DNA of 64,000 bases from Heptranchias perlo. Lineage: Eukaryota. The notes beneath the pieces are model-generated. The model ran no database searches and was not told where the DNA came from. It saw nothing but the letters and a program-made list of their open reading frames with translations. Where the stretch lies: positions 31,496,001 to 31,560,000 of the forward strand of contig NC_090327.1 of NCBI RefSeq assembly GCF_035084215.1. Direction: 5' to 3'. Below, one piece after another: positions 14,531 to 64,000 of this stretch (positions are counted from its first letter, which is position 1; each line of letters starts with the position of its first letter). The position numbers and the translations under genes were made by a program.

Positions 14531-14633
14531 TCAGAATTCAAAATCTTTATCGGTCATATCGATGGCCCAAGCAAATTTCTCTCTCTGCGTCTTATTGTAG
14601 ATCTTCTCAATAGGAACACCCCACTTCTTGCAC
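14531..14633 (-). CDS. TOP1MT: Topoisomerase I last coding exon ([33 protein letters not shown])
   Basis: AG acceptor at 14635-14634, 103 nt to TGA at 14533-14531; canonical Top1 C-terminus. Confidence 0.95.
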
Positions 14634-29600: not shown

Positions 29601-32600
29601 CAAAAACTAAGTGAGCAACACTGGTCTAGAACATTTGTAAGCTATGCTCAATGGAGTAACCTTATTGGATCTGTTTACACAAGATAGTTGCAAAATGAGG
29701 ATTGACCATTAACTAATTTATTTCATTATAACAAAGTGTTTAAAGGTGGCTGCAGAACTCTGGAATGGTGTTCTTAAACAAAAAAAAGGAGGTTTTGAAG
29801 CAGCAGTCTTCTAGTACCTTGGCCAAGTAATCACAGCCTAAGCAGTGAATGCAAATGTGTTATTTGACAACGGATGTCATCACAGTCAATCTTGACCATC
29901 TTCAGCCATGGCAATCAGGAGCAGAAATCCTGTCTCATTCTAATCCTATTAATCCAGGGCCCACTGCCACACCAACTGATATTGGCATTTTTAAAAAAAA
30001 AGTTTGTTTATTTTAAATTAATGCTCAGGATCTTGGCGATACTGCCAACACCGAATTTACTGTCCATCCAAAGTTGCCCCAAGAAGGTGGTGGTGAGCCT
30101 TCTCCATTGAATTTTGCAGTCCTTGGGTGATGGTACTCCCAAAATGGTATTAGGTAGAGAAATCCAGGGCCTTTAATTCAGCAATGAAAGAATGGCAGTT
30201 TATTTCAGAGGAAAACGTCACAGCTGAATTCTGATCTTGTCCTCACAATGTTCACACATGCACTTCCAGCAGGGATAAAACTCAGCACAGAGTAGGGATT
30301 AAACCGCACAGGGTTAGGGTTATCTGTGTGGCTCAGCTACTCAGGATTAACTCATCCATTTTTAAAAAAAAACGTAGGGCCAAGGTTCATAATTCAGGTT
30401 ACTACCAGAGTTGAATAGGAAAAATGACAAATCAGAATTTTACCCCACTGGAGGCTGCCAGCTCTGAGCTATCTGCTTAATCCCATTCCCCATACCCTTT
30501 TACAAATATTTATTCCCTTCCTTTTGAAAACATTATGTTTCCAGCACTGTTCTGACTTAGGGCCTTGCCATATCCTAACCACACTCAGAGTAAAAAAAAC
30601 CTCTCCTAAACTGGATTTATTTGTGCCCTCTAGTTACCAACTAATCAGTCAGTGGAAATAGTATCTCCCCCCCTCCACCACCCCACTTACCATATCAAAA
30701 ATTCTCAATTTGGAATAATTCTATTAAATCTCTTAACCTTCTCATGAAAAGGGCCCCAATCTAGACTAGGTTAAGTAAAATGGCAGCGGTTAGATGTCAC
30801 TGAACTTGTTTTTAAAAGCCTATAGGTTGTATCAGGAAGGCAAGGTGGAGGCACGGAGTTTTATAAATTTGCGGTCTTGGAAAAGAACGAGTTAGAATAA
30901 GAGTGGTGTGATAAATCTTGTGCTTATTTAACCAAGAAGAAAATGGTAGCCATCCTATGTCAGAACACACATACCTTAAGTTTGGAACTCGGGTTGAGCA
31001 TGATGTATTTAATGAGTCCCTGGACATTTTCTGTCCATGATGCCAGCCAGGTTACTTTATTATCGAAACGCACCTCCTTCCACTCGTGATCTTCTGGAGG
31101 AATTGGGATCTGGGAATCCCTGAATAAAATAAGCTTAATTTAGAAAAACAAACAAACAAACAAAGTCATAAACAGACAATCTGAACAGATTAGACTAGCT
31201 CAAATTATATTTGAACTAGACCACTCAGTGACAACAGAAGGTGACAGGGCAGCCTCTTGTAGTGTATTCAGGACTAAAAATATCACTGGACCCAGGATAT
31301 CTTTAAGAGCCTTTACTATAAAGATTTTTTTGATACAGACTGTAACTGATTATCTAATAAGGAACAGATCTGCACTGACTAAATGAACAGCCCAACAGCC
31401 ATTGGCTCCGAAAACGTGCATGCCACTAATCCTGGCATTTACACTGGGATCTTGTCCACCAATGCCTTCACTGCTGACCTTGCTAAACTGCAGGTTCAGG
31501 AGGAGGGCACCTAAATTACATGGGGCTAGTGGGCATCTGCCTGCCTCAAGCTGCCATGAAATCCAGCCTCAAGCTGTCAAACCACCTCTCACCACCAGAA
31601 ACTTAACAATTTGACTCAGTGTCTCCCTTTATAGGGGTATTACACTAAAGTACCAACTTAATAGCTCTACCAGATCAGTCTATTTCTGAGTGACGCCCCC
31701 TACTGGAAGCATGAAGTCAGTGAAATTACCCTTATATAAGTGCAGGTCTTTGTGTCTCTACTTCTTTCCCTTTGGGTGTCCAGGCCACTTCCCTTTCCTG
31801 GACACCCAAGGTGGGCCCCACTTCCACCAGGCTACATTATGCTTCATATAAAACAGCAAAGTACACTAGAATGCTGAGCACCAGATAGACTTTGGCTGAG
31901 CAAACTGCTGGCAAAGAAGGAAGGAAAAAGAAGATAAATGAGACCGGGAAAACCATCATCGCATAAATTTGGGCTAAAATTAAACCAGTCTGAGTTGGAA
32001 GGCCAGTGTAATACTCAGTCCTAGTTTATTTTTGCATCACAAAGGCAGGCAGTTAGGGTTACTTTTTGCTTCATATAAAGCAGCAAGGTAGAACAGATGG
32101 TTCTCCACACAAATGGAAATGACTGTCACAAGAAACAGGTGAGACTCAACCACAAACATAACGGGTAAATTCTTAAACAGTGGGGTCAGTTCACATGTTC
32201 AAAAAGGAAATGGGGTGGATTCTTGATTAAAACAGGGATGAAAGGAACAAGATAAAAAGAGAGGACCTAAACAACATGGCAGGTGGATTCTCTGTATTGC
32301 TATTTCTTGCATTCATCATGTAAACTGCTTACTTGCTGCAGTTGATAATGACGTCTTCAGGCATGATCCTTTTCTTTAGTTTTCCCATCTTTGGATGGTT
32401 GCCACGCCCACGAAACAGCCCCGGTGGCTCTATTTTGAAGTTGGCAATTCTCTCCCGATGCCCATCCATTGCACAGTAGCCATACTCTTCAGTGATCGCG
32501 TCTTGCTCTAACTTTAGTGCCTGTAGGGAAAGGATGGAATTTCACTGGAGAGTTCTAAGTTTATTTCCACCCATTTTCTTCCCTTCTCGTGCTGGGCTAA

Positions 32601-38600: not shown

Positions 38601-41600
38601 TTTGCTGGCATTTACCATCTAGGTTCACCTATGAAGAATGGTCATTCGGGTGAGCTGCCAAAACCTGTTGGATTGCACCCCAACATGAATCAGGTGCCTT
38701 AAGGACAGGAGGAAGTTTGCAACAAATTTTGCTACTTGACAATATATTCTCACCTGTTTCTCCTCCTTGGGTAACGCTTTCTTGGCCTCTGCTTTTTCAG
38801 TGAAGTATTGATGCATGCTCCTGAAATCGCATTGATTTAGGTTGGTGATTATCGTCTTCTCACAGTCGTTCATTTCCTGTACCCCAGAGGAAATCCATTA
38901 ACAGTTGTGTTAGCACACATCATTTATCACTGAGATCAGCTCACAAACTGATACAACTTTCATTTTTATTGCCTTCAGGATTATTATGCAAAACTGTAGT
39001 ACTTGGGCACCAAATCATGCTACAAGTGGTAGAAAATCGTGGAAGCTATCATGAAGAACTTTAATTTACATAGTACTTTAGAACCAATGAATTACTTTTG
39101 AAGCGCAGTGACTTGTTAGTCACTGCACTTCAAACGCAGATGAACTGCACACAGCAAAATGTCACAAACAACGTGGCGAGTGATTGTTGTGGGATGCATG
39201 AACATATGAAAATGACGGGCAGGAAAAGACCATATGGTCCATCAAGCCTATCCCAATCCTGATTTATGACGCATCGTGATTAGACATCCCTACCCATCAG
39301 TAACCATGTAATCTCCTGGGAGAGGCAAAAAAAATAAAAAACAATGGTTAATTAGGGGGAAAAAAATCTGGAAAATTACTCTCCTACCCTGTTAGGCGAA
39401 TAAAATTAGTCCAGGAGACCACATTGACCATGCTTATATTACCTGGTATTTCACCTACCTTTTATAAGATGTGATCTCTGCATACTTTCAAGACAGCTGA
39501 ACCAGTTCCTGGCTGGAGCAGAGGGTCAGCACCCACTGCACGAGCTGGCAACTTATTCAATAGATCCACTATCCTCCGGGCAAAAAACCTAACATTTAAT
39601 CTAGCCCTACCTTTGAGTAATTTATATGCATGACCCCTGGTCTTCCACAATCCCTCAGTAGGAACAGACATTGTGCCGCTACAATCACGATGCACATATA
39701 GTCCATAACAATGATGCAGTCAGTTATCAGACTGTATAGTGGGGTGCAATTCATCTTAATAGCACGGACTCAAATTAACACTAACCCAAACAAGCTACTT
39801 TCATGATTTAACCTCAAAAAGCTAACAGCGCAGTGCAATGATTTTTTTTTTAAAACTTCAAACCTATGGCTCTTAGCATTGCCATTATACCTGCACGGCC
39901 TCGAGAAAGGTTCACCACCAGGCTGGGTACAAAATTCAATGAATCACCTCGGCAGAATCTACAGCAGATACATTTGGAATGCTTACAAAGGTCCAAGCTT
40001 CCACAATGCATGAAGATCAAACTGAGTCAGTACCCATAACAGTGTAATGATATAATAGGTAGCGTGTTATTTTCTAATTTCCACACAAAGAAACAATGTG
40101 ATATATACATAATGCAGCACCCCATGCATCAGTGGCTCAATCTTGCCTGTACAGTTTGTCACTAAATGAAAGGCTACTTCTCTACAGGAGACAAGGGGGA
40201 ATTAAATAGAAGGAAAAATCACTTCCCCCCAATATGTCAATTGTTGAAAGAATGAGCACCTCTCCCCCGATCTTCAACGGCACCATCACTGAGTCCCCCA
40301 CCACCAACATCCTGGAGGGAATTCACCAATGACCAGAAGCTTGACTGGACCAGCCATCTCAACAAGGTAGCTACAAGAGCAAAGCAGAGCCTGGCTACTC
40401 TATAAATGGATCCCCTCCTGACCGTTCAAGGCCTCTCCATCACACTACGGACTTGAGTCTTTTAGATGTTGAATACTCACCTCTCGTCTGGATGGGTGCA
40501 GCTGCCAACACTCAAGAAGCTGGACACCATCCAGGGCGAAGCGGTTCATTTGATTGGTGCCCTTGCCACGACTCAACATTCAACCCCCTCTATTGCCAGT
40601 GCGCTGTGGCTGCAGTATGTACTATCTACAGGATGCACTGCAGCAATTCATCAAGCTTACTTTGACAGCACCTCTCAGGCCCTTGATCTCCAACACCAAA
40701 AAGGGCAAAAACTGTAAAATCATGTACGTTCCCTTCAAGTCACATACCATTCTGACCTGGACATATACAACTGTTCCTTCATCACTGGGTCAAAATCGTG
40801 GAATGCATTACCTATCATTATTGTGGGATCTGCAGTGATTCAAGGCAGCCCACTATCATTACCTACTCAAGTGAACTAGGGATGGGCAATAAAAGTGACT
40901 TTGCCAGCTCAGATTCAGTTCAGAGAATGCTAAAAATACACAGAAGGTCCATTAATACCTACAATAGTAAAGACAGATGTAGACTGAACTCTACACTCAG
41001 TTTTGATGACATTTTGTTGACAGTTTTGATGACATCTAGTCCATGCAGAGGAGCTGAAAGAATCCACTCATTATCTGCTACAAGGATAGCAAGTGAGTTT
41101 AGGGTTATTTTCAACCCGGCCTGAATTGGTAAATCTTACTCAGTTCAGACACAAGGCTGGCTGGTGTGGGGAATGGAAATATCATACTACTGCAGTACGT
41201 GATCTTTCAAAGTTTGTTTGGAGATGCATTCTTTTTTAAAATGATGTGAGCTTGGTTCAGTTGGTAGCACTCTCAACCCAAAATGGTAATTTGTCTTTTC
41301 TCTTTACAGATACTGACAGACCTTCTAGCATTTCCAGTTTTAATTTCACATTTGTTGTTTTTCTATTTATCTTGGATTCCATGCATCCTGATATTTAAAA
41401 AGGAAACTGTTTGTGACATCAAATCAAAAACTGTGGAAACTATCTCTTATTCTTCCTCAGGACCTCAAAACTGTGGAACTCCTTGCCTCCCTCAATCTTC
41501 CAATCTACAGGCTTTTGAAGTCCAAGCTTGGCATCACCAAATCAATATTTCTTGGACAATCATCTTCTATCCAACTCTTTTCGACTTTGCTGTTATCCTA

Positions 41601-43472
41601 CATCAAAGGGCTTGACCCTTCACCTAGGTTTCTCAATTAAAACAAAAGTAACACACCTTCCGCCAGTCGTTAAAGAAGTTCTGTCTGAAGACATCCTTTG
41701 TAGTGTACTCATGATCCAGCATCTTGGCGAAGAAGGTGGCCACTTCTTCCGCTGCGGGACTTAACTTCATTCGATTGCCTACATGCAGAAACAAACCTGA
41801 TTTACAAAACAAGCCATCAAATGTGGAGAGAGGCAAAGAAAACCTACTACAAACTAACTGTAGAGATCAAAAAAATTCAAATTAAAATAAAACCAGGAAA
41901 ATGTTGGGCTTGCTGCGTATTTCCATCAGCATCTGAAAAAAGGTTAATATGGAGTTCTTTGTCAGAACCAGAAACTGGTCGAAAAGTTATTTCTCTTTTC
42001 AGATACTGTCTTATTTCCATGCACAATGTCCAAATTCCTAATAACAATTAGTTCAAAAGATTAGGGACTAGCAGTAAGAACACTACCCTTCCACCTGGTG
42101 GAATCTGGTCCATGCAGATGAGCTGAAAGAATCCACTCATTATCTGCTACAAGGATAGCAAGTGAGTTTAGGGTTATTTTCAACCCGGCCTGAATTGGTA
42201 AATCTTACTCAGTTCAGACACAAGGCTGGCTGGTGTGGGGAATGGAAATATCATACTACTGCAGTACGTGATCTTTCAAAGTTTGTTTGGAGATGCATTC
42301 TTTTTTAAAATGATGAGAGCTTGGTTCAGTTGGTAGCACTCTCTCAAGTGACTCAGGAGGTTGTGAGCTCAAGCTCCACTATGGATTTGAGCACAAAATG
42401 TCGACCAACACTTTAGTGCATTACTGCAATGCTGCATTGTCGAAGTGCCATCTTTTGGACGAGAATTTAAACGAGGCACCATCCATCTGCTCAGGTCGAA
42501 AGATCCCTTGGCAGCATTTGAAAAAGAGCAGGGAGTTCTTCTAGTGTCCTGACCAATGCTGATCCCTCAATCAAAAAATAGATTACCTGGTCGTTCATTC
42601 ATTTTCTGTACGCAAATTAATAGGTGTGTTTTTTTTGCCGACGTAACAGTGACTACACTTCTAAAATAATCCATTAGTTGTAAAGCACTCGGGACATGCT
42701 GAGGGCACGAATGTGCTATATAATTGCAAATTCTTTAATAGCAGAGTATATATGGCTTTACTGTGCCTTAGGATATTCCTGATCAGGCATTTAAACATTG
42801 GAAGGGGGCCAAGACCTGCCACTAAGAGGCTGACTCAGTGGCAGGTTTTGGTCACTCCTTCCAGGGCTTTTCCCCTTTCTTTCCTGAAAGCATAGACCTG
42901 TGTAAGAGTATGATTCCATTGGCATTTCCAACCTCCAAGTCTTGCTCTAAGTGGCCATTCTTTATGCGTGAGGCTAAACTGCTAGTGTTGGCAAGCTATT
43001 CAATTGGGAAAGGAAAGAGGGGGGCATCACAGTGAGTTTGTGGACCCAATGTCCACACAAATTGCACATAGCACCTGCCCGCAGGGGTCACTGGATAGTG
43101 ATCAGTAGTGAGAATTCCTGATAAGGAGTGGAAATTCTTGGTTGATATTCTCCCCTCTCCCTAGCCAAAGGTGCTGGGAACAATTGTAGCAAACAAATTG
43201 CCTTCCCAAGAGATCAGTTAACTCAGCACAGGCCAGGGATGAAACCAGGGGCTTTCCTGGTTTGTATGGTTCAGTTCCCCATCAAGCAATACACTTAACC
43301 ACCGATTTACTGGTGTGAGGCTGAACAGTTTAAAGCGTAACATTTAGGACAATAGAGAATCAACACATACCTGTAAATGAACAGCTATATTTGTAACATT
43401 TAGGAATAAAATAAATTTGATAGAATACCATTCCCTTTTATATCTTGCAGGAGAGGAAGGTTCACTTTCTTC

Positions 43473-43513
<41 letters not shown>

Positions 43514-46500
43514 TGTAAAATAAATATATGCAATACAAACAGGTGAGTAATGGAATAGAACATATAAATTATATATGATATTGTAATAATGTATTTTTTT
43601 AACCATGAGCAAAGCAACAAGAGATCAGGTAGTTTATTCTATATCCCATGATTGGGCCATTTCATTGCATACAAAACAACTATTAAGTTGCTCAAAATTA
43701 TGTGATGTATAACCCCTTGTAATCTGAAGTTAACCTTTACTGTGTATCTTACCAACTCCTTTTTAAAAAAAAAATGAACATTTGCAAAGTTTGAGGGGGT
43801 ATAATTCATTACAGGGCTCCATAAAACTGGAGGAAAGCATCCCCTACTAGGTCACCAACATTTTGATCTGCCACACTAAACATCCTTGTTGCCTCGCTGA
43901 GTAATGTTTGATACAAGAGATAAATTTTGTTGATAATTTATCCAGACCATTGGTGCATTAAAATAAGGCTTCCCAACACTTTTACTCACCATTGTAATAG
44001 AAATCAACACCAAAAGGAAGCGGCTCGTATTCGGGTGCGAACAATGGACCTTTGTGTTCCAGAAACATCCATTTTACGCCATCTTCGTAGTGCTCCTCTT
44101 CCCACCTGATGACAGAACCAATACATTCCACAGGGAAGAAAAGCTAGTTATAGAAGAAACCAATACTAAATATTTTGCAATGACTGATATTCAAGCAACA
44201 GAAAAGACTACCTACCTGCTAGGGTCGTCTTCATTCTTTGAATCAAAGTCATCCTCCACATACTATTGGAGCAATAATTTTTGCCTGGAAAGGTCACAAG
44301 GGACAATGCCCTTATGCATGCAAAGCTATGATGTGATGATATGAGGAACACTGCTTACTTGATCCTTATAAAGTTGAACCACATTTACACCCCTTCCCCC
44401 AGCCACACTGAAGCTTCACTTTATTTTGACCCAAAAATCTCCAGAAGTGTAAAAGGATAAGACCCGATGAAATTATTCCCTGTAAAGATCTGAGGGCGAA
44501 TGTGTGTAGGCCCAAGCACATCTCAATTAAATGCCCTGCGAACACTTGGAGCAGGTCCCGGAACCATAACCGTGCAAAGTCGAATACTTTCAGGAGACAA
44601 AGGGAAAAAATCTGGCAGGGGAGAGGAGTCTAGTCCTTGAAAGCCATCCTCGGCAAAGGTATTTGTAAATCACTAAACATGGGAGATAGGGTTGGTCAAA
44701 GATAAGTGCCTTGATCGGACTCAGCCTGAAGAACAAGCAAAACAATTTTTCAAGAGTAGACTTTTCGATCACATTAGCCAACAGGATCAAAGGGAGAACA
44801 ATTTAATAAAGAACCTGAATGGAAATGAAGATTTCTAGATCCTTTAAATTAATTGAAAAAGCAAAAGATGTCTCAAAAAGAAATACGGAAGACTGATAGC
44901 TACCTCGGATAGAGAGCTTCACCCACAGGTGTCAGAACCTTAATGTTGACCTTACAGGAACGAGGGTTATACCACCAGGAGGACCAATGAACACATTTCT
45001 TTCACTTCTCTGAAGCCAACAAAGTGTGCACTACTGGAGATGAAAAACCTTTGCTTCCTCAATGTCTGTTTATCTCTATTGGGGCAATGGAGATCTGCTG
45101 TTCAGCAAACCACTGGCATAAAGTAGGATCAGCTCTGAGTGAATTCTTCCATGTTGGCGGGGCCATATTTCTGGTCTCCATTATACAGGAACACAACTTT
45201 AGTGTTCTACAATCCAGTCCTTGTCATTCAGATAATTGGATTTCAAGCTGGTCAAGAGGTTTAAAAAAAAAAGCCTTGCTCAGAACACTTCTATAATAGC
45301 TCAAGATAAGACTTGTAGTTGCCAACCTCCTAGAATGTGGTGAAGATTTGGATATTTGTCCAGGATATCCCTTGATGGGCAGCTCTTATGAGTTGTCTAT
45401 AAACGGATAAATGTGCAAGCACTGCAGCCTTAGGGAACATCCAGGGGTTAAATAAAGTATACTTATGACTGCTACTATGGAAACGAAACAGCACAAGTTC
45501 TTATAAAGGCTGGATGACAATGTTAAAGCAGGCATGTTTATTTTTTCTGGACACAGCCTAAATGATTTGAGGTAGTATCACCATCTTCTTTGACAAACTT
45601 GTTCAGTAATTAGTGATTGGGTGAAAGAGGTCCATTTTTTTGGGGAACAACAAACCACCATGACTAAAATCTGCTTCTTTTTTGGGAAAGAAATTGCTTA
45701 ATTGCAAGAGATGACAAAAGACTATCTATCTTGGTTGCCACCAGCTTGGGAATGCCTCAAGAGGCTGCAGAAATGTGATAGATCTCAGAATGTATGGTTT
45801 ACTCTCTGCCGATTGTCTTCTGACTCTATCTTTGAAATTAATCTGCACTCTATTTGCTGAGAATCAAAGCTGGTAGTTTCATACTTACACAAGACAGATG
45901 ACTGCTGATTTAAAAAAAAAATAACTCTAGCTGATTTTCTGCTGGCTACCTCAGAATGGATCTGGATCAGAGCTGTTTGCTGCACGTACTGTGTGGGCTA
46001 AGTCCTGACTTAGATCGTCATGGGCTCTAGGATCTTGGCTAAAAATACATAAAGGCTGCTGTTTCTGCCTCGTCCTTAGACTGGTGATTCTGCTCATGGT
46101 AGGAAATTTTATCCCAAAGGATCATTTCTGGGATGGCTTAGAGATCCTGCTAATAATACTTGCAACCTTCAAACATTTCCATCAGTTTCTCAATGAAGAA
46201 ATCCTCCCATTGAAAGGCATCTGCAGCAGCTTTGCCTGCACCTCCTGGAGATGCATGGCCATACAAGTCATTCAGCAAGATTTTCTGTGTTAAGCTGCTA
46301 CATCTACCACGCTGCAGTTGTGAGATAGTCTGGAGGAGGTCCTTCAGCAGCAACAGGAAGGCTCCCTAGCAGGGCTTTGGATGTCAATTATTACAGCCTG
46401 AAGCAGAGCTACTTGCTGCTAAAAGATGGCCAGTGGCTTTAAAACCATGCTATTTTGAGTAGGGCAGACTCATTAGTGAAGGACTTTTGACTCAAATTAT

Positions 46501-49500: not shown

Positions 49501-52500
49501 CAAAAGCAGACACCAACAGGTGCTGCACATTCACAATATGTTGGGAGTTTCAACCTGCTGCGCCACAAGACTTGGGTTTAATATCCTCTGGTTAACACCT
49601 TTATATAAAATTCCTTTTTGTGCTATTTTACTGCAATTGTTAGCATGTTCACATTTTAACAGATCAACAACAACTACATTTGAATAAGTAAAAAGGAATT
49701 GCAAACACATTAAACTAGGCCACTACAGGAAATTAAAGCTCTCTGGAAGCAGTAGCTGCTGCACCTGTTACAGCAAGAAACTTAAGGGTAAGTTTTCAAC
49801 CCAGCCTTTAAAACAGACAGTAGGAACCAAGAGCAGCAGCAGTTCATCTCATCTCGTCACTGATCAAATATTATAATATGGAATCATATGGCACAATAGG
49901 AGGCCATTCGGCCCATCGTGCCTGTGCTTTGTAAGGGCTATCCAATTAGTCCCATTCTCTTGCTGTTTCCCCATAACCCTGCAAATTTTTTCTTTTCAAG
50001 TATATATCCGATACCCTTCGTCAGGTTATTATTGTATCTATTTCCTTTCAGGCAGTGCATTCCAGATCATAACAACTAACTGCGTAAAAAAATTCTCATC
50101 TCCCCCTAGGTTCTTCTGCTAATTATCTAAAATTTGTATCCTCTGGTTACCGACCCTTCTGCCAGCGGAAACAATTCTTCCCTATGTACTCCATCAAAAT
50201 CCCTCATAATTTAGAGCTTAATTAAATCTCCTCGTAACTTTCTCTGCTCTAAGGAGAACAATCCCAGCTTCTCTAATGTCTCCATATAATTTAATTTATT
50301 TAATTAAATATCTCTATTTACAAACCTGGAAGCATACCCTTTATCAAGAAGTCCTATACTACTACCGAAAAATTGCTCAATGTTCCAGAGAATCAAACTT
50401 GATAGCGGTCAAATTACTGGTCTAGTGGAAGCTGGGACCTTTCTGTTCCAGTGGCACTGTATAGCACCACTGAAGGGTTGCAATGGTCGTCACCATTTTC
50501 AGAAGCTTTCTTTTAAAAAAAACTGATGAACTTTTTCATAAGACCTCACTTTCAATATGGGCAGGTTGAACACGGTGCAATCTAACATTCCAACACCACC
50601 CATCATCTCTCCAGTTCCCAGTCAATTCATCTCATACCAGTGAGCCTAATACATCACCTCAAAGAATCAGGAGAGAAAGGACTGATGGTTTTAGGGGTTA
50701 ACCAGTATAAAATAAATTAAAAATGCTAAAGACAGTGAGTATCACTAGTTAATCTATTTATTTCTTGAAAACAATCCTCATCCCTTTCTATTAATTCCCA
50801 CTTTACCCCACTCTATAGAATTGAAAGTTGTAACTTACCTCTTTTCTGCAAACTGTGCTCTCTGAAGAACAGAAACCGTGCATCTTAAATTCCTCACAGA
50901 TAAATAGGTGCACATAATGTTGAAGTTAGCAAAGGCTATCTGTGTCACCGCAGTCACACATCTGAACATAACAAAATAACACTGCTGGTGCAAGCGATCC
51001 CCAAGGCTAGCTTACTTCAAAACACACTGCACTGAAAAAGAAAACCTCCATGCATGATACACTCGCCTGACTCATTACTGCTACATTTTGAACTTTCAAC
51101 CTGGAAACACTTCCTGTGGTCCTGCTAATTTCTTTTCCCACAGACAACAAATTTCTGCACATGGTAACAGAACTTGCAGACCAGTACAAGCCTCACTTTC
51201 AGTTCTCAATTTTTATTTGTGTATGTATGAACAAGGTGAAAAGAGAAAACAGGATGAAGAGGAGAAAGGAATAAACAGCCTCACTTATTGTTGATCATGA
51301 TGTGGATCATTATTGTTGACAGTTTCAAAGTAAAACCAAACACTTTTCATTTTAGAATTTTTGTTCCTTTACAAACTCTCATCGGCAGTCTCTCGACCCT
51401 GCCAAAGATGCAGTGTCAACTTTCTGTAGAACTTACACATATTCATAATATTATAGTAGGTACAGCACAGGAGGAGGCCATTCAGCTCATCGTGTCTGTG
51501 CTGGCTCTTTAAAAGAGCTATCCAATTAGTCCCATTCCTCTGTTCTTTCCCCATAGCCATGTAAATGTTTTCCCTTCAAGTATTTATCTAATTCCCTTTT
51601 GAAAGTTACTATTGAATCTGCTTCCACCAACCTTCAGACAGTGCATTCCAGATCATTACAACTCGCTGCGTAAAACAATGTTTCCTCATATCTTATAAGA
51701 TATTAAAGGGGAATTATAAGATATTAAGGGGAACAGATAGGGTGGATGGAGAGAAACTATTTCTGCTGGTTGGGGATTCTAGGAGTAGGGGGTACAGTCT
51801 AAAAATTAGAGCCAGACCTTTCAGGAGTGAGATTAGAAAACATTTCGACACACAAAGGGTGGTAGAAGTTTGGAACTCTCTTCCGCAAACGGCAAGTGAA
51901 ACTAGCTCAATTGCTAAATTTAAATGTGAGATAGATAGCTTTTTGGCAACCAAAGATATTAAGGGATATGGGCCAAAGGCGGGTATATGCAGTTAGATCA
52001 CAGATCAGCCATGATCTTATCAAATGGCGGAAGCAGGCACGAGGGGCGAAAGGCCTACTCCTGTTCCTATGTCGCCTCTGGCTCTTTCGCCAATCGCCTT
52101 AAATCTGTGTCCTCTGGTTACTGACCCTTCTTCCACTGGAAACAGTTTCTCTTCATTTATTCTGTCAAAACCATTCATGATTTTGAACACCTCTATCAAA
52201 TCTTCTCTTAACCTTCCTTGTTCAGAGGAGAACAACCCCAACTTCTCCAGTCTCTCCACGTAACTGAAGTCCCTCATACCTGGTATCATTCTAGTAAATC
52301 TCTTCTGCACCCTCTCTATGGCCTTGATATTATTCCTAAAGTGTGGTGCCCAGAATTGAACACAATACTCCAGCTGAAGCCTAACCAGTGTTTTATAAAG
52401 GTTTTGCATAACTTCCTTGCTTCTCTACTCTGTGTCTCTATTAATAAAACCCATGATCCCATAGCTTTTTAAAAAAAAAATAAAAACAGCCTTCTCAACT

Positions 52501-55500
52501 TGTCCTGCCACCTGCAAAGATTTATGTATGTGCACCCCCAGGTCTCTGTTCTTGCATCCCCTTTAAAATTGTATCATTTAGTTTATATTGCCTCTCCTCA
52601 TTCTTCCGACCAAAATGTATCATTTCACATTTCTCTGCATTAAATTTCATCTGCCATGTGTCTGCCCATTTCACCAGTCTGTCTATATTCTCCTGAAGTC
52701 TGATACTATCCTCCACATCGTTTACTACAGTGGCTTGCTAGGCCATTTGAGTAGACTAAGCCTGTATTCTCAAGTTTAGAAGAATGAGAGGTGATCTCAT
52801 TGAAACACAAAATTCTTACAGGGCTCGACAGGGTAGATGCAAGGAAGAGGTTTCCCTGGGCTGGGGAGTCTAGAACCGGGGTCACAGCCTCATGTCGTCC
52901 GCAAACTTTGAAATTATATCCACTATACCCAAGTCCAGGTCATTAATATATAATCAAAAAGAGCAATGGTCCTGGCGAACTTAAGAAAATAAGAAATAGG
53001 AGCAAGAGTAGGCCCCTCAAGCGTGCTCCGCCATTCAAGATCATGACTGATCTTCTACCCCAACGCCATTTTCCTGCTCCACCCCATATCCCTTGATGCC
53101 TTTAATATCTAGAAATCTATCGGTCTCTGTTTTGAATGGGCTCAATGACTGAGCCTCCACAGCCCTCTGGTGTAGAGAATTCCAAAGATTCACCACCCTC
53201 AGTGAAGAAATTTCTCCTCTTCAGTCCTAAATGTTCTACCCCTATTCTAAGGCTGTGACCCCTGGTTCTAGACTCCCCAGCCCAGGGAAACATCTTCCTT
53301 GCATCTACCCTGTCGAGCCCTGTAAGAATTTTGTGTGTTTCAATGAGATCACCTCTCATTCTTCTAAACTCGAGAATACAGGCTTAGTCTACTCAAATGG
53401 CCTAGCAAGCCACTCAGTTGTATAATCTCGCTAAAAAGAGTCATAATAAGAATAAAACCGGACGGACCACCCGGCATCGGACCACGAGGCATCGGACACG
53501 ACAAAGGCAAACCAAGCCCAGTTGACCCTGCAAAGTCCTCCTCACTAACATCTGGGGACTTGTGCAAAAATTGGGAGAGCTGTCCCACAGACTAGTCAAG
53601 CAACACCCTGACATAGCCATACGCACAGAATCATACCTTTCAGCCATGTCCCAGACTCTTCCATCACCATCCCTGGGTATGTCCTGTCCCACCGGCAGGA
53701 CAGACCGACCAGAGGGAGCGATACAGCGATATACAGTCAGGAGGGAGTGGCCCTGGGAGTCCTCAACATTGACTCTGGACCCCATGAAATCTCATGGCAT
53801 CAGGTCAAACATGGACAAGGAAACCTCCTGCTGATTACTACCTACCGTCGTCCCTCAGCTGATGAATCAGGCCTCCTCCATGTTGAACACCACTTGGAGG
53901 AAGCACTGAGGGTAGCAAGGGCACAGAATGTACTCTGGGTGGGGGACTTCAATGTCCATCACCAAGAGTGGCTCGGTAGCACCACTACTAACCAAGCTGG
54001 CCGAGTCCTGAAGGACACAGCTGCCAGACTGGGCCTGTGGCAGGTGGTGAGCGAACCAACATGAGGGAAAAACTTGCTTGACCTCGTCCTCACCAATCGA
54101 CTTGTCGCAAATGCATCTGTCCATGACAGTATTGGTAGGAGTGACCACCGCACAGTCCTCGTGGAGACGAAGTCCCGTCTTCGCACTGAGGACACCATCC
54201 AATGTGTTGTGTGGCAATACCACCGTGCTGAATGGGATAGATTCAGAACAGATCTAGCAGCTCAAAACTGGGCATCCATGAGGCGTTGTGGGCCAGCAGC
54301 AGAATTGTATTCCAGCACAATCTAACCTCATGGCCCGGCATATTCCTCACTCTACCATTACCAACAAGTCAGGGGATCAACCCTGGTCCAATGAGGAGTG
54401 TAGAAGAGCATACCAGGAGCAACAACAGGCGCACCTAAAAATGAGGTGCCAACCTGGTGAAGCTACAACTCAGGATTACATGCATGCTAAACAGCAGAAG
54501 CAACATGCTATAGACAGAGCTAAGCGATTCCACAACCAACGGATCAGATCAAAGCTCTGCATCCTGCCACATTCAGTCATGAATGGTGGTGGACAATTAA
54601 ACAACTAATGGGAGGAGGAGGTTCTGTAAACATTCCCGCCCTCAATGATGGTGGAGTCCAGCACGTGAGTGCAAAAGACAAGGCTGAAGCGTTTGCAACC
54701 ATCTTCAGCCAGAAGTGCCGAGTGGACGATCCATCTCGGCCTCCTCCCAATATCCCCACCATCACAGAAGCCAGTCTTCAGCCAATTCGATTCACTCCAC
54801 GTGATAGCAAGAAACAGCTGAGTGCACTGGATATAGAAAAGGCTATGGGCCTCGACAACATCCCGGCTGTAGTGCTGAAGACTTGTGTTCTAGAACTAGC
54901 CTCGCCTCTAGCCAAGCTGTTCCAGTACAGCTGCAACACTGGCATCTACCAGACAATGTGGAAAATTGCCCAGGTATGTCCTGTCCACAAAAAGCAGGAC
55001 AAATCCAATCCGGCCAATTACCGCCCCATTAGCCTACTCTCAATCATCAGCAAAGTGACGGAAGGTGTCGTCGACAGTGCTATCAAGCGGCACTTACTCA
55101 CCGATGCTCAGTTTGGGTTCCGCCAGGACCACTCGGCTCCAGACCACATTACAACCTTGGTCCAAACATGGACAAAAGAGCTGAATTCCAGAGGCGAGGT
55201 GAGAGTGACCGCCTTTGACATCAAGGTAGCATTTGACAGAGTGTGGCACCAAGGAGCCCTAGTAAAATTGAAGTCAATGGGAATCAGGGGGAAAACTCTC
55301 CAGTGGCTGGAGTCATACCTAGCACAAAGGAAGATGGTAGGGTTGTTGGAGGCCAATCATCTCAGCCCTAGGACATTGCTGCAGGAGTTCCTCAGGGCAA
55401 TGTCCTAGGCCCAACCATCTTCAGCTGCTTCATCAATGACCTTCCCTCCATCATAAGGTCAGAAATGGGGATGTTCGCTGATGATTGCACATTGTTCAGT

Positions 55501-58500
55501 TCCATTTGCAACCCCTCAAATAATGAAGCAGTCCGTGCTCACATGCAGCATGACCTGGACAACATCCAGGCTTGGGCTGATAAGTGGCAAGTAACATTCG
55601 TGCCAGACAATGACCATCTCCAACAAGAGAGAGTCTAACCACCTCCCCTTGACATTCAATGGCATTACTATCGCCAAATCTCCCACCATCAACATCCTGG
55701 GGGTCACCATTGACCAGAAACTTAACTGGACCAGCCATATAAATACTGTGGCTACAAAAGCAGGTCAGAGGCCGGGTATTCTGCGGTGAGTGACCCACCT
55801 CCTGACTCCCCAAAGCCTTTCCACCATCTACAAGGCACAAGTCAGGAGTGTGATGGAATACTCTCCACTTGCCTGGATGAGTGCAGCTCCAACAACACGC
55901 AGGAAGCTTGACACCATCTACCACCCTAAACATTCACTCCCTTCATCACTGGCGCACAGTAGCTGCAGTGTGTACCATCCATAGGATGCACTGCAGCAAC
56001 TCGCCAAGGTTTCTTCAACAGCACCTCCCAAACCCACGACCTCTACCAACTAGAAGGACATGGGAACACCACCTGCACGTTCCCCTCCAAGTCATACACC
56101 ATCCCGACTTGGAAATATATCGCCGTTCCTTCATCGTCGCTGGGTCAAAATCCTGGAACTCCCTTCCTAACAGCACTGTGGGAGAACCTTCACCACACGG
56201 ACTGCATTGGTTCAAGAAGGTGGCTCACCCCCACCTTCTCCAGGGCAATTAGGGATGGGCAATAAATGCCGGCGTCGCCAGCGACGCCCACATCCCATGA
56301 ATGAATAAAAAAATCTCTCCTCATACCACAATCCCGCCATCCCAGGAATCAATCTGGTGAACCTTTGTTGCACTCCCTCTATGACAAGTATATCCTTAGG
56401 TGAAGAGACCAAAATTGTACTCAACACTCCACGTGCAGTCTCACCAAGGCCCTATATAATTGCAGTAAGACATCTTTACTCCTATACTCAAATCCTCTTG
56501 TAATAAAGGCCAACATATCATTTGCCTTCCTAATTGCTTGCTGCACTTGCATGTTAGCTTTCAGTGACTTATGTGCAAGGACACCCAGGTCCCTTTGAAC
56601 ATCAACATTTCCCAATCTCTCACCATTTAAAAAATACTCTGCATTTCTTCAACAGCACCTCCAAACCCACGACCTCTACCACCTAGAAGGACATGGGAAC
56701 ACCACCACCTGCATGTTCCCCTCCAAGTCATACACCATCCCGACTTAGAAATATATCACCGTTCCTTCATCGTCGCTGGGTCAAAATCCTGTTTTTCCTA
56801 CCAAAGTGGATAACTTCACATTTTTCCACATTATATTCCATATGCCATGTTCTCACCCATTCACTTAGCCTGTCTATATCCCCTTGAAGCCTCATTGCAT
56901 CCTCCTCACAACTTACATTTCCACCCAGTTTTGTGTCATCAGCAAACTTGGAAATAGTACATTTGGTCCCCTCATCCAAATCATTGCTATAGATTGTGAA
57001 TAGCTGGGGCCCAAGCACCGATCCCTGCGGTACCCCACTAATCACAGTCTGCCAACCTGAAAAAGACCCATTTATTCCTGCTCTGTTTTCTGTCTGTTAA
57101 CCAATTCTCAATCCGTGCCTATATATTACCTCCAATTCCATATGCTCTAACTTTGTTCACCAACCTCCTCTGTAGGACCTTATCGAAAGCCTTCTGAAAA
57201 TCCAAATACACCACATCCACTGGTTCCCCCTTATTTATTCTACTAGTTACATCCTCAAAGAACTCCAATAGGTTTGTCAAACATGATTCCCCTTTCATAA
57301 ATCCATGTTGACTGCCAAATTCTATTATTTTCTAAGTATCCTGTTATCACATCCTTTATAATAGATTCCAGCATTTTCCCTACTACTGATGTCAGGCTAA
57401 CAGGTCTGTAGTTCCCTGTTTTCTCTCTCCCTCCTTTCTTAAATAGTGGGGTTATATTTGCCACCCTCCAATCTGCAGGAACCATTCTAGAATCCATGGA
57501 ATTTTGGAAGATGACAAGCAATGCATCCACTATCTCTACAGCCACCTTTTTTAAAACCCTGGGATGTAGATTATCAGGTCCTTGGGATTTATCGACTTCC
57601 AGTCCCATTAATTTCTCTAGTACTTTTTTTTTTACTATACTAATTTCTTTCAGTTCCTCCTTCTCGCCAGACTCTTGGTTCTCTAGTATTTCTGGGAGGT
57701 TTTTTGTGTCTTCTTCCATGAAGACAGACACAAAGTATGTTTAATTTCTCTGCCCTTTCCTTATTCCTCATCATAAATTCTCCCGTCTGTCTATAAGGGA
57801 CACATTTGCCTTTGCCAGTCTTTTCCTTTTTACATAACTCTAGAAGCTTTTACAGTCCATTTTTATATTTCTCGCTAGTTTACTTTCATTCTATTTCCCT
57901 TTATCAATTTCTTGGTCCTCCTTTGCTGAATTCTAAAATGCTCCCAATCCTCAGGCTAACTGCTTTTTCTGGCAACTTTATATGCCTCTTCCTTTTATTT
58001 AATACTATCTTTAATTTCTCTTGTTAGCCACGGTTGGACCACTTTTCTTGTTGGGTTTTTGTGCCTTAAAAGGAACATCACTGCATACTTCCCTCCAGTC
58101 TCAAAAATAACCGTTCACCACCACACTCTGCCACTGTCCCTTTAATCCCATGGGCTTTAATTTTGCTCAAGTCTATTATGTGGTACTTATCAAATGCCTT
58201 TTGAAAGTCCATATACACATTAACCACACTACCCTCATCAACCCTCTCTGTTACATCAAAGAACTCAAGCAAGTTAGTCAAACAAGATTTTCCTTTAACA
58301 AATCAGTGATGATTTTCATTTATTAGCCCATACTTTTCCAAATGCCAATTAATTTTGTCCCGAACTACTGTCTCAAAGTTTTCCCACCATTAGGCTGACT
58401 GGGCTGTAATTGCCAGGTTTATCCCTCCACTTTTTTTTTGAACAGGAGTGTAACATTTGCAGTCCTCCAGTCCTCTGGCACCATCCCCATATCTAAGGAG

Positions 58501-59554
58501 GATTGGAAGATTGAAAGAGTCCAATTAATCTATCAAAAAATAAAGTGGGATAGGGTCTCAAGTGTCAGCCTTGGCTTAATGATGCACTCTCACCTCTGAT
58601 TCGGATGGTTGTGGGTTCAAGCTCCACTACAGAGACTTGAGCATATAATCTAGGATAGCACTTCTGTGCAGTTCTGATGGAGTGCTGCACTATCTGAGGT
58701 GTTGTCTTTCAGATGAAACATTAAAGCGAGGCCCCACTGGCCTTCTCAGGTGGACGTAAAAGATACCCGGCACTATTCAAAGAGCAGGGAAGTTCTCCCA
58801 GTATCCTGGACAATATTTATCCCTCAGCCAACACAACAGATAATTTGGTCATTTATTTCATTGCTATTTGTGGGACCTTGCTGTGCACAAATTGGCTGCC
58901 CCGTTTCCTACATCAGAACAGTGACTACACTTCATTGGCTGTAAAGTACTGTGGAACATCCTGACGCTATGTAAATACAAGTCCTTCTTTCTTACATGCA
59001 GGACCCTCTTTTAATGTAAAGAATCCACAAATTAACAGGGAAGGAGAGTCTAGTGGCCAGTTTGGGTTTGGGGGGGGGGGGGGGGGGGGAAGAGAGAGGC
59101 TGGAGTTTTCATATTGTTACACACTCTCTCCTCCTCTTTTCCACCCCTCGTATTTTAGATTGGGAAAACAGGCTTATCAAAATTGTAATCAATATATTAA
59201 AATACCCCTCAATGCACACCAAAGTGGGCATATCTCTGCTCCCCATCCCAATAATTTTTTTTAGCACTGCACATAAAGAGGTTGTACAAAAAGAGAAACA
59301 TCAAAAGTAACATGACTTTTTTTAAAACTAAAGATGATACTATTACACAATAACTCTTCCCCATCCCAAACCCATTAATCTCACCATTTCCATTTATCTG
59401 CATCTTTTTTCTTCTCTTCCTCCCCTTTCAAATGGGTCTTGTTGCTTTTTTCCTCCTTCAATTTCTGCTTTTTCTCCTCCTTCTCTTTGACCTCGATCAC
59501 GTTCTTCTTTACATTCCCTGATTTCCTTCTCGGCACCTTGCATGCAGATGATGT
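14531..59554 (-). CDS. TOP1MT: DNA topoisomerase I (type IB), TOP1MT-type paralogue; spliced gene with 13 core exons plus alternative 5' exons
   Basis: Core exons of 116,122,123,188,145,144,186,69,115,128,95,150,103 nt join into one open frame with GT-AG introns. All five catalytic motifs are present: LALRAG (R), LGKDS (K), KVFRTY (R), LCNHQR (H), KLNYLD (Y). Confidence 0.93.
15314..15463 (-). CDS. TOP1MT: Topoisomerase I exon carrying the catalytic tyrosine ([50 protein letters not shown])
   Basis: 150 nt with AG/GT ends; SKLNYLDPR active-site motif. Confidence 0.96.
15820..16145 (+). mobile_element. CR1 LINE 3' end
   Basis: [22 protein letters not shown]-type sequence and a CCTATTCCTGT tail. 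Confidence 0.75.
16378..16472 (-). CDS. TOP1MT: Topoisomerase I linker exon ([32 protein letters not shown])
   Basis: 95 nt, CAG acceptor, GTAAGT donor, in frame with both neighbours. Confidence 0.93.
17085..17970 (+). mobile_element. Two CR1 3' ends (about 17085-17390 and 17520-17970)
   Basis: ORF 17547-17825 is near-identical to the C-terminus of ORF 3667-4518; TTCTATGATTCT tail. Confidence 0.85.
18680..18807 (-). CDS. TOP1MT: Topoisomerase I exon ([43 protein letters not shown])
   Basis: 128 nt with AG/GT ends; catalytic His motif LCNHQR. Confidence 0.95.
18955..19320 (-). mobile_element. CR1 LINE 3' end
   Basis: Same family as the copies at 15820 and 33480. Confidence 0.8.
20244..20358 (-). 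CDS. TOP1MT: Topoisomerase I exon ([38 protein letters not shown])
   Basis: 115 nt, TAG acceptor, GTAAGT donor; KVFRTYNAS motif. Confidence 0.95.
20553..20621 (-). CDS. TOP1MT: Topoisomerase I exon ([23 protein letters not shown])
   Basis: 69 nt, CAG acceptor, GTATGT donor. Confidence 0.94.
20715..21400 (-). mobile_element. DeuSINE-type tRNA-headed SINE interrupted by a CR1 3' end (about 20780-21055)
   Basis: Reverse-strand similarity to the SINE at 58565-58992: GCATTTATATAGCACCTTTCA tail at about 20720 and tRNA-like head at about 21340-21400. Confidence 0.7.
22085..22305 (+). mobile_element. CR1 LINE 3' end
   Basis: Near-identical to the 3' UTR at 7000-7210. Confidence 0.8.
23050..23235 (-). 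CDS. TOP1MT: Topoisomerase I exon ([62 protein letters not shown])
   Basis: 186 nt with AG/GT ends; catalytic Arg and Lys motifs. Confidence 0.96.
23615..23960 (-). mobile_element. CR1 LINE 3' end
   Basis: [23 protein letters not shown]. Confidence 0.8.
24000..26220 (+). mobile_element. Relatively young CR1 LINE, about 2.2 kb of ORF2 plus 3' UTR
   Basis: Collinear ORF fragments with [44 protein letters not shown] and KFADDTK; few disruptions. Confidence 0.92.
26730..27625 (+). mobile_element. CR1 LINE 3' fragment
   Basis: [23 protein letters not shown]; TTCTATGATTCTATGATTCT tail. Confidence 0.88.
27837..27980 (-). CDS. TOP1MT: Topoisomerase I exon ([48 protein letters not shown])
   Basis: 144 nt, TAG acceptor, GT donor; translated by hand. 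Confidence 0.94.
28095..28500 (+). mobile_element. Old tRNA-headed SINE-like repeat; decayed relatives at about 16600-16780, 21800-21990, 30230-30350, 32620-32850, 36470-36825 and 43000-43310
   Basis: Recurrent ACTGAGCCATAYAGA..CCCAGGTTCAAT..GGTCTGTG..GAGTTAGCT head with a B-box-like GGTTCAAT, and a GCTGGAAAGTG-like core. Confidence 0.55.
30975..31119 (-). CDS. TOP1MT: Topoisomerase I exon ([48 protein letters not shown])
   Basis: 145 nt, CAG acceptor, GTATGT donor. Confidence 0.94.
32333..32520 (-). CDS. TOP1MT: Topoisomerase I exon ([63 protein letters not shown])
   Basis: 188 nt, CAG acceptor, GTAAGC donor; [10 protein letters not shown] motif. Confidence 0.95.
33480..35085 (-). mobile_element. 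CR1 LINE ORF2/3' UTR remnant
   Basis: [22 protein letters not shown] and RTRG.NLKIRAR motifs. Confidence 0.88.
37733..38344. mobile_element. Non-autonomous DNA transposon (MITE-like, possibly PIF/Harbinger)
   Basis: Imperfect terminal inverted repeats GGGAATTATTTTAGCATGG ... CCAGGCTAAAATTATGCCC around a GC-rich interior; no clear TSD. Confidence 0.55.
38754..38876 (-). CDS. TOP1MT: Topoisomerase I exon ([41 protein letters not shown])
   Basis: 123 nt, CAG acceptor, GTGAG donor. Confidence 0.94.
39200..39660 (-). mobile_element. Old CR1-like 3' end
   Basis: [23 protein letters not shown] in ORF 39462-39695. Confidence 0.65.
40250..40910 (+). mobile_element. Decayed 3' portion of the LINE family seen at 53396-56312
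   Basis: [11 protein letters not shown] and [11 protein letters not shown] motifs, and a GGGATGGGCAATAAA tail. Confidence 0.8.
41034..42343 (+). repeat. 241-bp near-perfect direct repeat (41034-41274 and 42103-42343) flanking a topoisomerase exon
   Basis: Direct reading: constant offset of 1069 with about 3 mismatches. Confidence 0.95.
41657..41778 (-). CDS. TOP1MT: Topoisomerase I exon ([41 protein letters not shown])
   Basis: 122 nt with AG/GT ends; [19 protein letters not shown] motif. Confidence 0.95.
42318..42737 (+). mobile_element. DeuSINE-type tRNA-headed SINE
   Basis: TTGGTTCAGTTGGTAGCACTCTC head, same body as 58565-58992, and a GTGCTATATAATTGCAA tail. Confidence 0.7.
43475..43510. 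repeat. (TA)n microsatellite
   Basis: About 18 perfect AT units. Confidence 0.95.
43990..44105 (-). CDS. TOP1MT: Topoisomerase I first core exon ([39 protein letters not shown])
   Basis: 116 nt, phase-2 CAG acceptor, GTGAGT donor; equivalent to TOP1 exon 9 / TOP1MT exon 2. Confidence 0.94.
49875..50290 (-). mobile_element. CR1 LINE 3' end
   Basis: Same family as 8125-8560. Confidence 0.8.
50839..50969 (-). CDS. TOP1MT: Candidate alternative first coding exon encoding a mitochondrial-targeting-like peptide ([44 protein letters not shown])
   Basis: ATG at 50969 with G at -3 and an in-frame TAA 15 codons upstream; 43 open codons plus 2 nt; perfect AG|GTAAGT phase-2 donor joining the 44105 acceptor in frame. 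The peptide is Arg/Thr/Ser/hydrophobic with one acidic residue, and the sequence is non-repetitive. Confidence 0.75.
51450..52980 (-). mobile_element. CR1 LINE with a plus-strand CR1 3' end (about 51692-52070) nested inside
   Basis: ORFs 52020-52409 and 52522-52716 on the minus strand; the insert is near-identical to 25855-26220. Confidence 0.88.
52980..58075 (-). mobile_element. CR1 LINE (about 52980-53395 plus 56313-58075) split by insertion of another LINE
   Basis: Host sequence continues across the insert (..GTCTACTCAA | TCTCTCCTCATA..); ORFs 56767-57045 and 57255-57731. Confidence 0.88.
53396..56312 (+). mobile_element. Near-complete 2.9-kb single-ORF non-LTR retrotransposon (APE endonuclease plus RT), distinct from the local CR1s; frameshifted
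   Basis: Endonuclease motifs [27 protein letters not shown] and SDH; RT motifs [32 protein letters not shown] and FADD; tail ..CCCATGAATGAATAAAAAAA. Confidence 0.9.
58078..58512 (-). mobile_element. CR1 RT fragment
   Basis: [17 protein letters not shown]. Confidence 0.8.
58565..58992 (+). mobile_element. DeuSINE-type tRNA-headed SINE
   Basis: tRNA-like head (GGTTGTGGGTTCAAGCTCCAC), Deu-domain-like body (GGAGTGCTGCACT..GTCTTTCAGATGA..CTCAGGTGGACGTAAAAGAT) and GCTATGTAAATACAAGTCCTTCTTT tail. Confidence 0.75.
59385..59554 (-). CDS. TOP1MT: Lys/Glu-rich N-terminal-domain exon homologous to nuclear TOP1 exon 8 ([57 protein letters not shown])
   Basis: 170 nt open; T-rich acceptor ending CAG; phase-2 TG|GTGAGA donor that rebuilds KWKW-WEEE with the 44105 exon. 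Confidence 0.85.
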
Positions 59555-62633: not shown

Positions 62634-64000
62634 GGGTGGTAATTTTAACCCCCAGTGGGTGGGAGGTTAAAGTAGAAGCTTTTTGGAGCGGGAGCGCATC
62701 CTGGCTCCAATGCGCCCACTTCCATGGTTAACCCAGGCGCATTAGGATGTACGCGCACAACAGAAACACAGAAGTCCTGTCCCCAGTTAAAGCTTGCAGG
62801 CTGATATTTAAAGGCCCAATTCAGGTAGATGAAGCACTTTTGGTACTTAACTTTTTGTGGATTCTGCAACAGAAATGATTTAACTTCACCTGAATGTGTT
62901 TCCCATGGCTTCTGCAACATGCCATTGAAATGGAGGCGAGTTGCAGCCAAAGCTTATTTGGTCCTTTAAACCAGTGATTTGCACATCTCAATAAAAGGTG
63001 AGGTATTGGAGCTGGGCACTCAGTTCTCAGACAAACATTTGGCTCGGAGTTCTGTGTTTAGATTGAGATTTCTTTGCTGCCTGTAATGCCAAGGATGCCC
63101 TCATATCTAACAGGTTCTCATAAGATGTGCAAATTGAAGACTCTGAAATACTCTGGCCGCCTGGAACAACCACTGCCAACCCAACACCAACCCCCCCATT
63201 CCTTTGCACAAAACAATCCTTCAACCACGCATACACCCAGTGCATACACACCCAGTGGGTGGCATCATGTCTTGGCATTCATGATGAAGCACATGAAAGG
63301 GAGAATTCACAAAGGGACTCAATAATGGCCAAGACGTGGCAGTGGCGGCGATAATGATTAAACGTAACGTGCCATAACAGAAAAAACATAAATTAACACA
63401 ACGGCTCAAACACCCTTTTGCATATCCTTGGTGAATTACAATTGCTTAGCCTTTCTCTTTCTACTGCTTCTGCGTGGTACATCCCCTGTAGCTTCAGCAG
63501 AGAAATCGGCAGATTGCTCAGATCCCGGCTCACGACCTACGACCTCTGGGTTTTGGAGCCGTGAGGGCCCCGCTAAAGACTGCTCCACCTGCACTTGTCC
63601 AGGGGCAGACTTTGCCATCAGGAGAGGAGGCAGCATTGCAGGTACTGGTTGAGGAGGGGGCAATGGGTGAGAACTTTGAATGGAATCCCCACTTCCATGT
63701 CCCCTTTCATCATGATGTGGAGATGCCGGTGATGGACTGGGGTTGACAATTGTAAACAATTTTACAACACCAAGTTATAGTCCAGCAATTTTATTTTAAA
63801 TTCACAAGCTTTCGGAGGCTTCCTCCTTCGTCATCATTCCTCTCCTGAGCCAACAAAACGTAACTTCTGCCACTCTGGTGACCAGCAAGTTGGTGAGCAG
63901 ATGTGCCACGTTGGAAGGCCACGGCTAACATATCTGACGGCCTGTTTAAGGCGGCAGACACATTGGCATCCAGAGTCCACACGGCTGTTGTCATGGCCTG
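62634..64000. mobile_element. Probable decayed DNA transposon (Harbinger-like) running off the window edge
   Basis: Begins GGGTGGTAATTTTAACC, similar to the 37733 terminus; GC-richer interior with low-complexity ORF remnants. Confidence 0.35.
63751..63833 (-). mobile_element. Second copy of the Penelope-like hammerhead remnant
   Basis: The reverse complement reads TGACGAAGGAGGAAGCCTCCGAAAGCTTGTGAATTTAAAATAAAATTGCTGGACTATAACTTGGTGTTGTAAAATTGTTTACA, matching 2903-2985. Confidence 0.7.

Follow-up and report, generated by a model that had tools for sequence, protein, structure and literature searches.

Results

A topoisomerase gene with two alternative N-termini

The minus strand of the window, a 64,000-nt stretch of Heptranchias perlo DNA, carries what is, as read from its sequence, one gene with two mutually exclusive N-termini on one core. 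We regard it as fairly probable that this gene belongs to the TOP1MT lineage of chondrichthyans and gives rise to a short mitochondrial and a long, most likely nuclear form, made by placing either N-terminus on a core of 13 exons. What makes the locus interesting is its dual architecture. This is visible in database models, but no description of dual N-termini of TOP1MT was found in the literature searched, which comprised titles and the openings of abstracts, with most subscription journals and bioRxiv supplements lying outside the search. The word "isoform" does not occur in the main text of PMC10081982 as far as it is accessible, and a long TOP1MT form is not mentioned in the accessible portions of PMC2770673, PMC2790464 and PMC8455175.

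All exons of the gene are encoded on the minus strand. Core exon 1, the WEEE exon (43990–44105, PF02919), begins with the phase-2 acceptor that is common to both N-termini and is followed by core exons 2 (41657–41778), 3 (38754–38876), 4 (32333–32520), 5 (30975–31119), 6 (27837–27980, PF01028), 7 (23050–23235), 8 (20553–20621), 9 (20244–20358), 10 (18680–18807), 11 (the linker exon, 16378–16472), 12 (15314–15463, PF14370), which encodes the catalytic Tyr562, and 13 (14531–14633), which ends in a TGA stop. The 12 internal introns of the core are all of the GT-AG type and the frames of 12 of the 13 exons match PF02919, PF01028 or PF14370; only the linker exon matches none of them. R327, K371, R429, H471 and Y562 correspond, with an offset of +3, to the catalytic positions of TOP1MT given in Table 3 of the accessible text of PMC10081982. 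The predicted gene product is a eukaryotic type IB topoisomerase with intact catalytic residues.

The in-frame 150-nt Tyr562 exon (15463–15314, minus strand) is absent from three database models, P0005 (Heptranchias, X3), P0013 (Narcine, X5) and P0019 (Callorhinchus, X4); such a recurring skip, if true, would give a catalytically dead enzyme. Around core exon 2, two intronic frames on the minus strand (42378–42259 and 41303–41190), separated by about 1070 nt, share a terminal translated stretch of about 28 residues and represent a short local duplication.

Fragments of LINE-type reverse transcriptase and endonuclease are located at 3670–4542, 53612–55405 and 57258–57740, and many more broken LINE-like frames were seen in the introns. 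Two inverted copies of about 150 nt (52729–52881 and 53260–53414, 97–98% identical, 378 nt apart) lie 1.8 kb upstream of the short first exon, within a LINE-like stretch. Rfam gave no match across the 64-kb window.

The short first coding exon

The original prediction was an exon of 131 nt encoding a mitochondrial-presequence-like peptide. This alternative first coding exon (50839–50969, minus strand) comprises 43 codons and a split Arg codon, ends with a phase-2 donor and would provide the presequence-like N-terminus of a 604-aa isoform. The predicted details were reproduced: the TAA at 51014–51012 shares its frame with the ATG at 50969, the donor after 50839 reads AG/gtaagt, the peptide contains five Arg (junction codon counted), one Lys and a single acidic residue (Glu), amounting to a net charge of +5, and the stop-to-stop frame of 58 aa is below the 60-aa limit of the list of open reading frames. 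Joined to the 13 core exons (1684 nt), the exon gives a model of 14 exons and 1815 nt, encoding 604 aa with a single terminal stop. The size given for human TOP1MT in the original prediction, about 601 aa and 14 exons, agrees with the accessible text of PMC10081982, which gives 601 aa and 14 exons, 13 of them shared terminal exons. The exon is not "hidden", as had been stated, for homologous N-termini are already present in named database isoforms of relatives. That it is the first exon of a TOP1MT-type protein holds in so far as it is the coding first exon of the 604-aa form with 14 exons; it is not the sole first exon, since it sits inside an intron of a longer form, a location that had been overlooked. 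Upstream of the ATG, 50970–51031 (minus strand) is probably 5' untranslated; besides the in-frame TAA it contains possible acceptors at 51031 and 51026, and the alignment of an N-terminal extension from Rhinoraja reaches back to 50984.

With a matrix made from the gene's own 13 donors, which score from 2.1 to 6.7, the candidate donor scores 3.7 and is below the median of 4.8. In the 15,279-nt intron, two frames open with an ATG and lead to a phase-2 donor whose score is at least that of the candidate donor, and one of them, the candidate, has a net charge of at least +5 and at most one acid. The plus strand of the 64-kb window, taken as control, has three comparable frames, one with presequence-like composition; because the control also gives one such frame, composition and donor are weak evidence when taken alone. 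The split Arg codon before WE is weak evidence for the exon as well, since any sequence ending in AG yields it, and read-through of the intron in the window does so too. At the level of sequence, the exon is confirmed as real and coding because its N-terminus is conserved in chondrichthyans. Taken by itself it is ordinary: a first exon of this kind is to be expected in a TOP1MT-type isoform, and in relatives it has already been annotated.

By tblastn, the N-termini of Heterodontus (70% identity), Chiloscyllium (55%), Mobula (41%) and Rhinoraja (39%) were aligned to 50969–50838, and a homologue of the exon peptide opens named isoforms of 603–615 aa in these four. Local alignment with four chondrichthyan N-termini gave scores of 134, 123, 85 and 70, each of which was attained by none of 2000 shuffles. 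The ATG and the frame, on whose conservation in other chondrichthyans the original prediction had let the exon depend, are therefore kept at the protein level. In an alignment of five short N-termini, 10 of 44 columns are invariant, including Met1, Arg3 and Arg29, and the five sequences together have 2 acidic and 36 basic residues in 219. The exon would be older than the split between sharks and rays.

A search with the neighbouring core exon gave 22 matches among 23 candidates. Named chondrichthyan proteins accounted for 17 of these: five with the short N-terminus homologous to the exon (P0003, P0007, P0017, P0008 and P0004), 11 with a long N-terminus and one model fusing both. Searched directly, the 43-aa peptide gave three candidates in a protein search, none of which scored, no match among 1.84 billion representatives, nothing above 0.75 in the ESM Atlas and no Pfam family; since homologues surfaced through the neighbouring exon, we take these blanks as failures of sensitivity. 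The named isoforms P0003–P0019 are predicted models from automatic annotation, and a functional description of the chondrichthyan isoforms was looked for but not found. The fused model, P0009 of Scyliorhinus, which includes part of the short exon, was rejected as a prediction artefact; the acceptor matching it, at 50892, has a score of -1.3, lower than that of any of the 14 real acceptors.

The long charged N-terminus

The last exon of the long N-terminus is located at 59385–59554 (minus strand, 170 nt) and the earlier exons lie beyond position 64000. It is rich in K and E, ends with KWKW through a split TG/G codon and has a phase-2 donor that joins in frame to the acceptor at 44105, the same phase-2 acceptor that serves the short exon; both joins, short and long, are phase 2 and open. 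The exon is 98% identical, over 58 aligned residues, to residues 297–354 of P0005, an 864-aa protein of Heptranchias perlo with a charged N-terminus of 354 residues and a core that matches the exons of the window, and residues 1–296 of P0005 had no match within the 64 kb. Chiloscyllium punctatum has both forms, the short one as a fragment beside a long isoform, and the core exon is found verbatim in both.

The long N-terminus occurs in 11 named records from nine species including Callorhinchus (P0005, P0006, P0010–P0016, P0018 and P0019). It comprises 310–360 residues, 46% of them charged, with a near-neutral net charge and six matches to K[KR]x[KR]. In four sharks and rays it is 47–78% identical over about 250 residues, and it is kept as far as Callorhinchus with E values of 7e-22 to 9e-22. 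A block at about residues 110–176 of P0005, which is encoded outside the window, is 67% identical over 67 residues from sharks to Callorhinchus and carries no Pfam annotation; it is possibly an interaction motif. The conserved part (P0005 residues 95–200) had no usable match in the Atlas, and BLAST found no similarity of the long N-terminus to the N-termini of TOP1 or to the long N-termini of tetrapod TOP1MT.

Such long tetrapod N-termini were seen in three of 13 rows of the tetrapod TOP1MT clade, from two frogs and one lizard; they are charged and end in KWKW, whereas nine rows have short basic N-termini and one is apparently mis-modelled. TOP1MT is expected to lack a long, NLS-bearing N-terminus, but the shark gene encodes a long charged one. 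Because three of the 13 tetrapod records carry one as well, this lack may be a feature of some lineages only.

Affiliation of the gene

Orthology of the shark gene to tetrapod TOP1MT is likely from the phylogenetic placement of its core. The trees contained 53, 28 and 27 of 129 collected proteins plus the core from the window, picked by name, with TOP1MT of teleosts, gar, coelacanth and lamprey outside the sample, and the Trichinella outgroup was removed from the careful tree because it had fallen among vertebrate rows in an earlier one. The TOP1 clade (91/92) excludes the gene of the window, which is found in a chondrichthyan clade of its own (100/100), while a separate Heptranchias TOP1, P0032 (767 aa), falls in the TOP1 clade; shark TOP1 has about 770 aa. 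A quick tree of 54 rows gave the chondrichthyan clade a support of 99 and left the wider join open. In the careful tree of 28 rows, the shark gene joins tetrapod TOP1MT at 86/81, but the two other arrangements, given below, were not rejected.

Downstream, 13 kb from the stop of the topoisomerase gene and on the same strand, a first coding exon was seen at 1381–1160 (minus strand) that belongs to a phospholipase C gamma gene, with 74.9 bits to PLCG1 and 46.9 bits to PLCG2. Since human TOP1 adjoins PLCG1, a PLCG1-like neighbour is compatible with a duplicated pair that was retained as well as with a third paralogue. If the locus is the TOP1MT paralogon, the PLCG1-like gene may be a duplicate of PLCG1 that is missing in humans.

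A third TOP1 paralogue of cartilaginous fishes, located beside a PLCG1-like gene and with an independently gained presequence exon, would not be an orthologue of tetrapod TOP1MT; we consider this improbable. It would agree with the neighbour and with the tests of alternative topologies, as neither a grouping of the shark gene with TOP1 (p-AU 0.34) nor one of tetrapod TOP1MT with TOP1 (p-AU 0.13) was rejected against the best tree. Besides, the core is about equally distant from both paralogues (77.1% vs 77.5% identity), 18 diagnostic columns are divided into eight of the TOP1MT type, eight of the TOP1 type and two of neither, and none of the nine tetrapod TOP1MT presequences is similar to the shark exon peptide. 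Presequences, however, diverge fast, with 34.8% identity across chordates according to the accessible text of PMC10081982, the exon is at the same intron position as exon 1 of TOP1MT, and the best tree places the gene with TOP1MT. Further, only two chondrichthyan classes were present among the best 120 of 7931 matches, below which a faster third class could rank. The gene is also located on a longer sequence than TOP1 in Heptranchias (143 v 55 Mb), Pristis (102 v 46 Mb), Heterodontus (209 v 104 Mb), Mustelus (142 v 83 Mb) and Leucoraja (110 v 38 Mb), as is TOP1MT compared to TOP1 in Dendropsophus (220 v 79 Mb); this placement on a large chromosome, like that of tetrapod TOP1MT, is soft evidence.

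Names in the databases were set aside as evidence because P0109 of Mustelus (771 aa), named "DNA topoisomerase I, mitochondrial", groups with nuclear TOP1. Several short isoforms of the presequence type are named "topoisomerase 1-like" and the long ones "mitochondrial-like". In the accessible text of PMC10081982, proteins of Chiloscyllium and Carcharodon, not tied by accession to the present records, were treated as TOP1MT.

Proposed use of the two N-termini

In the reading that we favour, an orthologue of TOP1MT with two N-termini, transcripts whose coding region starts at 50969–50839 would give the 604-aa precursor, its basic 44-residue N-terminus would act as matrix presequence for import, perhaps cleaved near the invariant Arg29, and the imported short form would relax mtDNA. 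These transcripts may start at an internal promoter or with a non-coding leader spliced to 51026 or 51031. From a promoter beyond the window, other transcripts would skip the short exon and join 59385 to 44105; the resulting long form, with about 350 charged residues, basic clusters and a KWKW end, would most likely be nuclear. Joined to the 59385 donor, all five acceptors near the short exon that score above 1 lead to a premature stop. Mutual exclusion of the two N-termini would therefore be enforced, and a minor use as poison exon is possible. A CpG island was not found upstream of the exon (o/e 0.21–0.23), and an ETS-like 9-mer at 51108–51116 was rejected as promoter element, being at chance level (0.79 expected, present in 55 of 100 shuffles).

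There is a small chance that the short mitochondrial isoform is the sole one of importance, the long N-terminus being an annotation product, minor or vestigial, that plays no part in the nucleus. This would agree with the accessible texts of PMC10081982 and PMC8455175, in which TOP1MT is exclusively mitochondrial, and of PMC2770673, in which human Top1mt directed to the nucleus interacted weakly with chromosomes and bound them poorly. A vestige should have decayed, yet the 11 records from nine species have kept the long N-terminus open and conserved, with the identity over about 250 residues in sharks and rays and the block kept in Callorhinchus described above, which argues against this.

A strong cryptic acceptor is located at 50961 (minus strand), 8 nt past the ATG. 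It is very improbable that the long transcript uses the segment as a poison cassette exon, with 59385 joined to this acceptor and the resulting TG/A stop leading to decay. With a score of 6.6, the acceptor exceeds the median of the gene's 14 acceptors (range 1.4–10.0), and each of the five acceptors above 1 in the scanned stretch gives a premature stop, but no frame would be needed after that stop, whereas 44 codons, Met1 and the scarcity of acids are kept in five taxa. As a side use of the segment, a poison-exon function could exist.

Probable targeting of the short form

Matrix presequences are N-terminal, net positive, almost devoid of acids and 20–60 residues long. The shark peptide has 44 residues, a net charge of +5 and one acid, and it is likely, judged by these features, to be the mitochondrial presequence of shark TOP1MT. 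Its residues 4–25 are uncharged, and the invariant Arg29 is followed by Cys or Ser, which we take to resemble an R-2 cleavage site. The N-termini of tetrapod TOP1MT are of similar length and charge (33–54 residues, +5 to +9). The best hydrophobic moment over 18 residues was 0.46 (p 0.375 against shuffles). This amphipathicity, no better than that of shuffles, and the blank searches of the ESM Atlas above 0.75 and of the 1.84 billion representatives would suit a genuine short isoform that lacks a presequence and is found, for instance, in the cytosol or the nucleus, but all nine N-termini of tetrapod TOP1MT likewise do not exceed shuffles in the moment test (p > 0.1) and resemble the shark peptide in length and charge, which leaves this the least credible of the alternatives.

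Discussion

With 13 terminal exons, one short first exon and about 600 aa, the shark gene has the exon organisation of TOP1MT. It resembles vertebrate TOP1MT in the short basic first exon placed on 13 core exons (604 aa in the shark, 601 aa in human), in the five catalytic residues being in register and in their grouping in the best tree, but its presequence cannot be aligned to those of tetrapods, and it retains a long charged N-terminus whereas descriptions of TOP1MT confine it to mitochondria. Nuclear TOP1, a gene of 21 exons with a charged, NLS-bearing N-terminal domain, is similar to the shark long form in the high content of charged residues (about 46% in the shark N-terminus), in the passage from KWKW to the WEEE exon and in the PLCG1-like gene downstream on the same strand; unlike it, the shark long N-terminus is near-neutral over its 310–360 residues and not alignable to those of TOP1, and sharks own a separate TOP1 (P0032). 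The named chondrichthyan isoforms (P0003, P0007, P0008 and P0017 short, the 11 records given above long) represent the same gene with the same two N-termini.

UNG1 and UNG2 are dually targeted by alternative first exons. For TOP3A, dual targeting by alternative start codons is given in the accessible texts of PMC2770673 and PMC12585908. In both cases a single catalytic core has two N-terminal addresses, as proposed for the shark gene, in which the choice by an alternative first coding exon is UNG-like and not TOP3A-like. It differs from both in that a dedicated nuclear paralogue already exists.

TOP1MT is held to be neolocalised and confined to mitochondria, and its core to be unsuited to chromosomes (accessible texts of PMC2790464, PMC2770673 and PMC10081982). 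[quoted passage not shown] If this is true, TOP1MT arose without swapping a nuclear N-terminus for a presequence, and there would be a second active nuclear topoisomerase I with a conserved N-terminal block of its own. A gene with both N-termini is a candidate for a living intermediate that would show the gain of a presequence exon, and it would allow testing whether a single core can serve both genomes. Many non-mammalian proteins that bear the name "mitochondrial" would then also be long forms, probably located in the nucleus.
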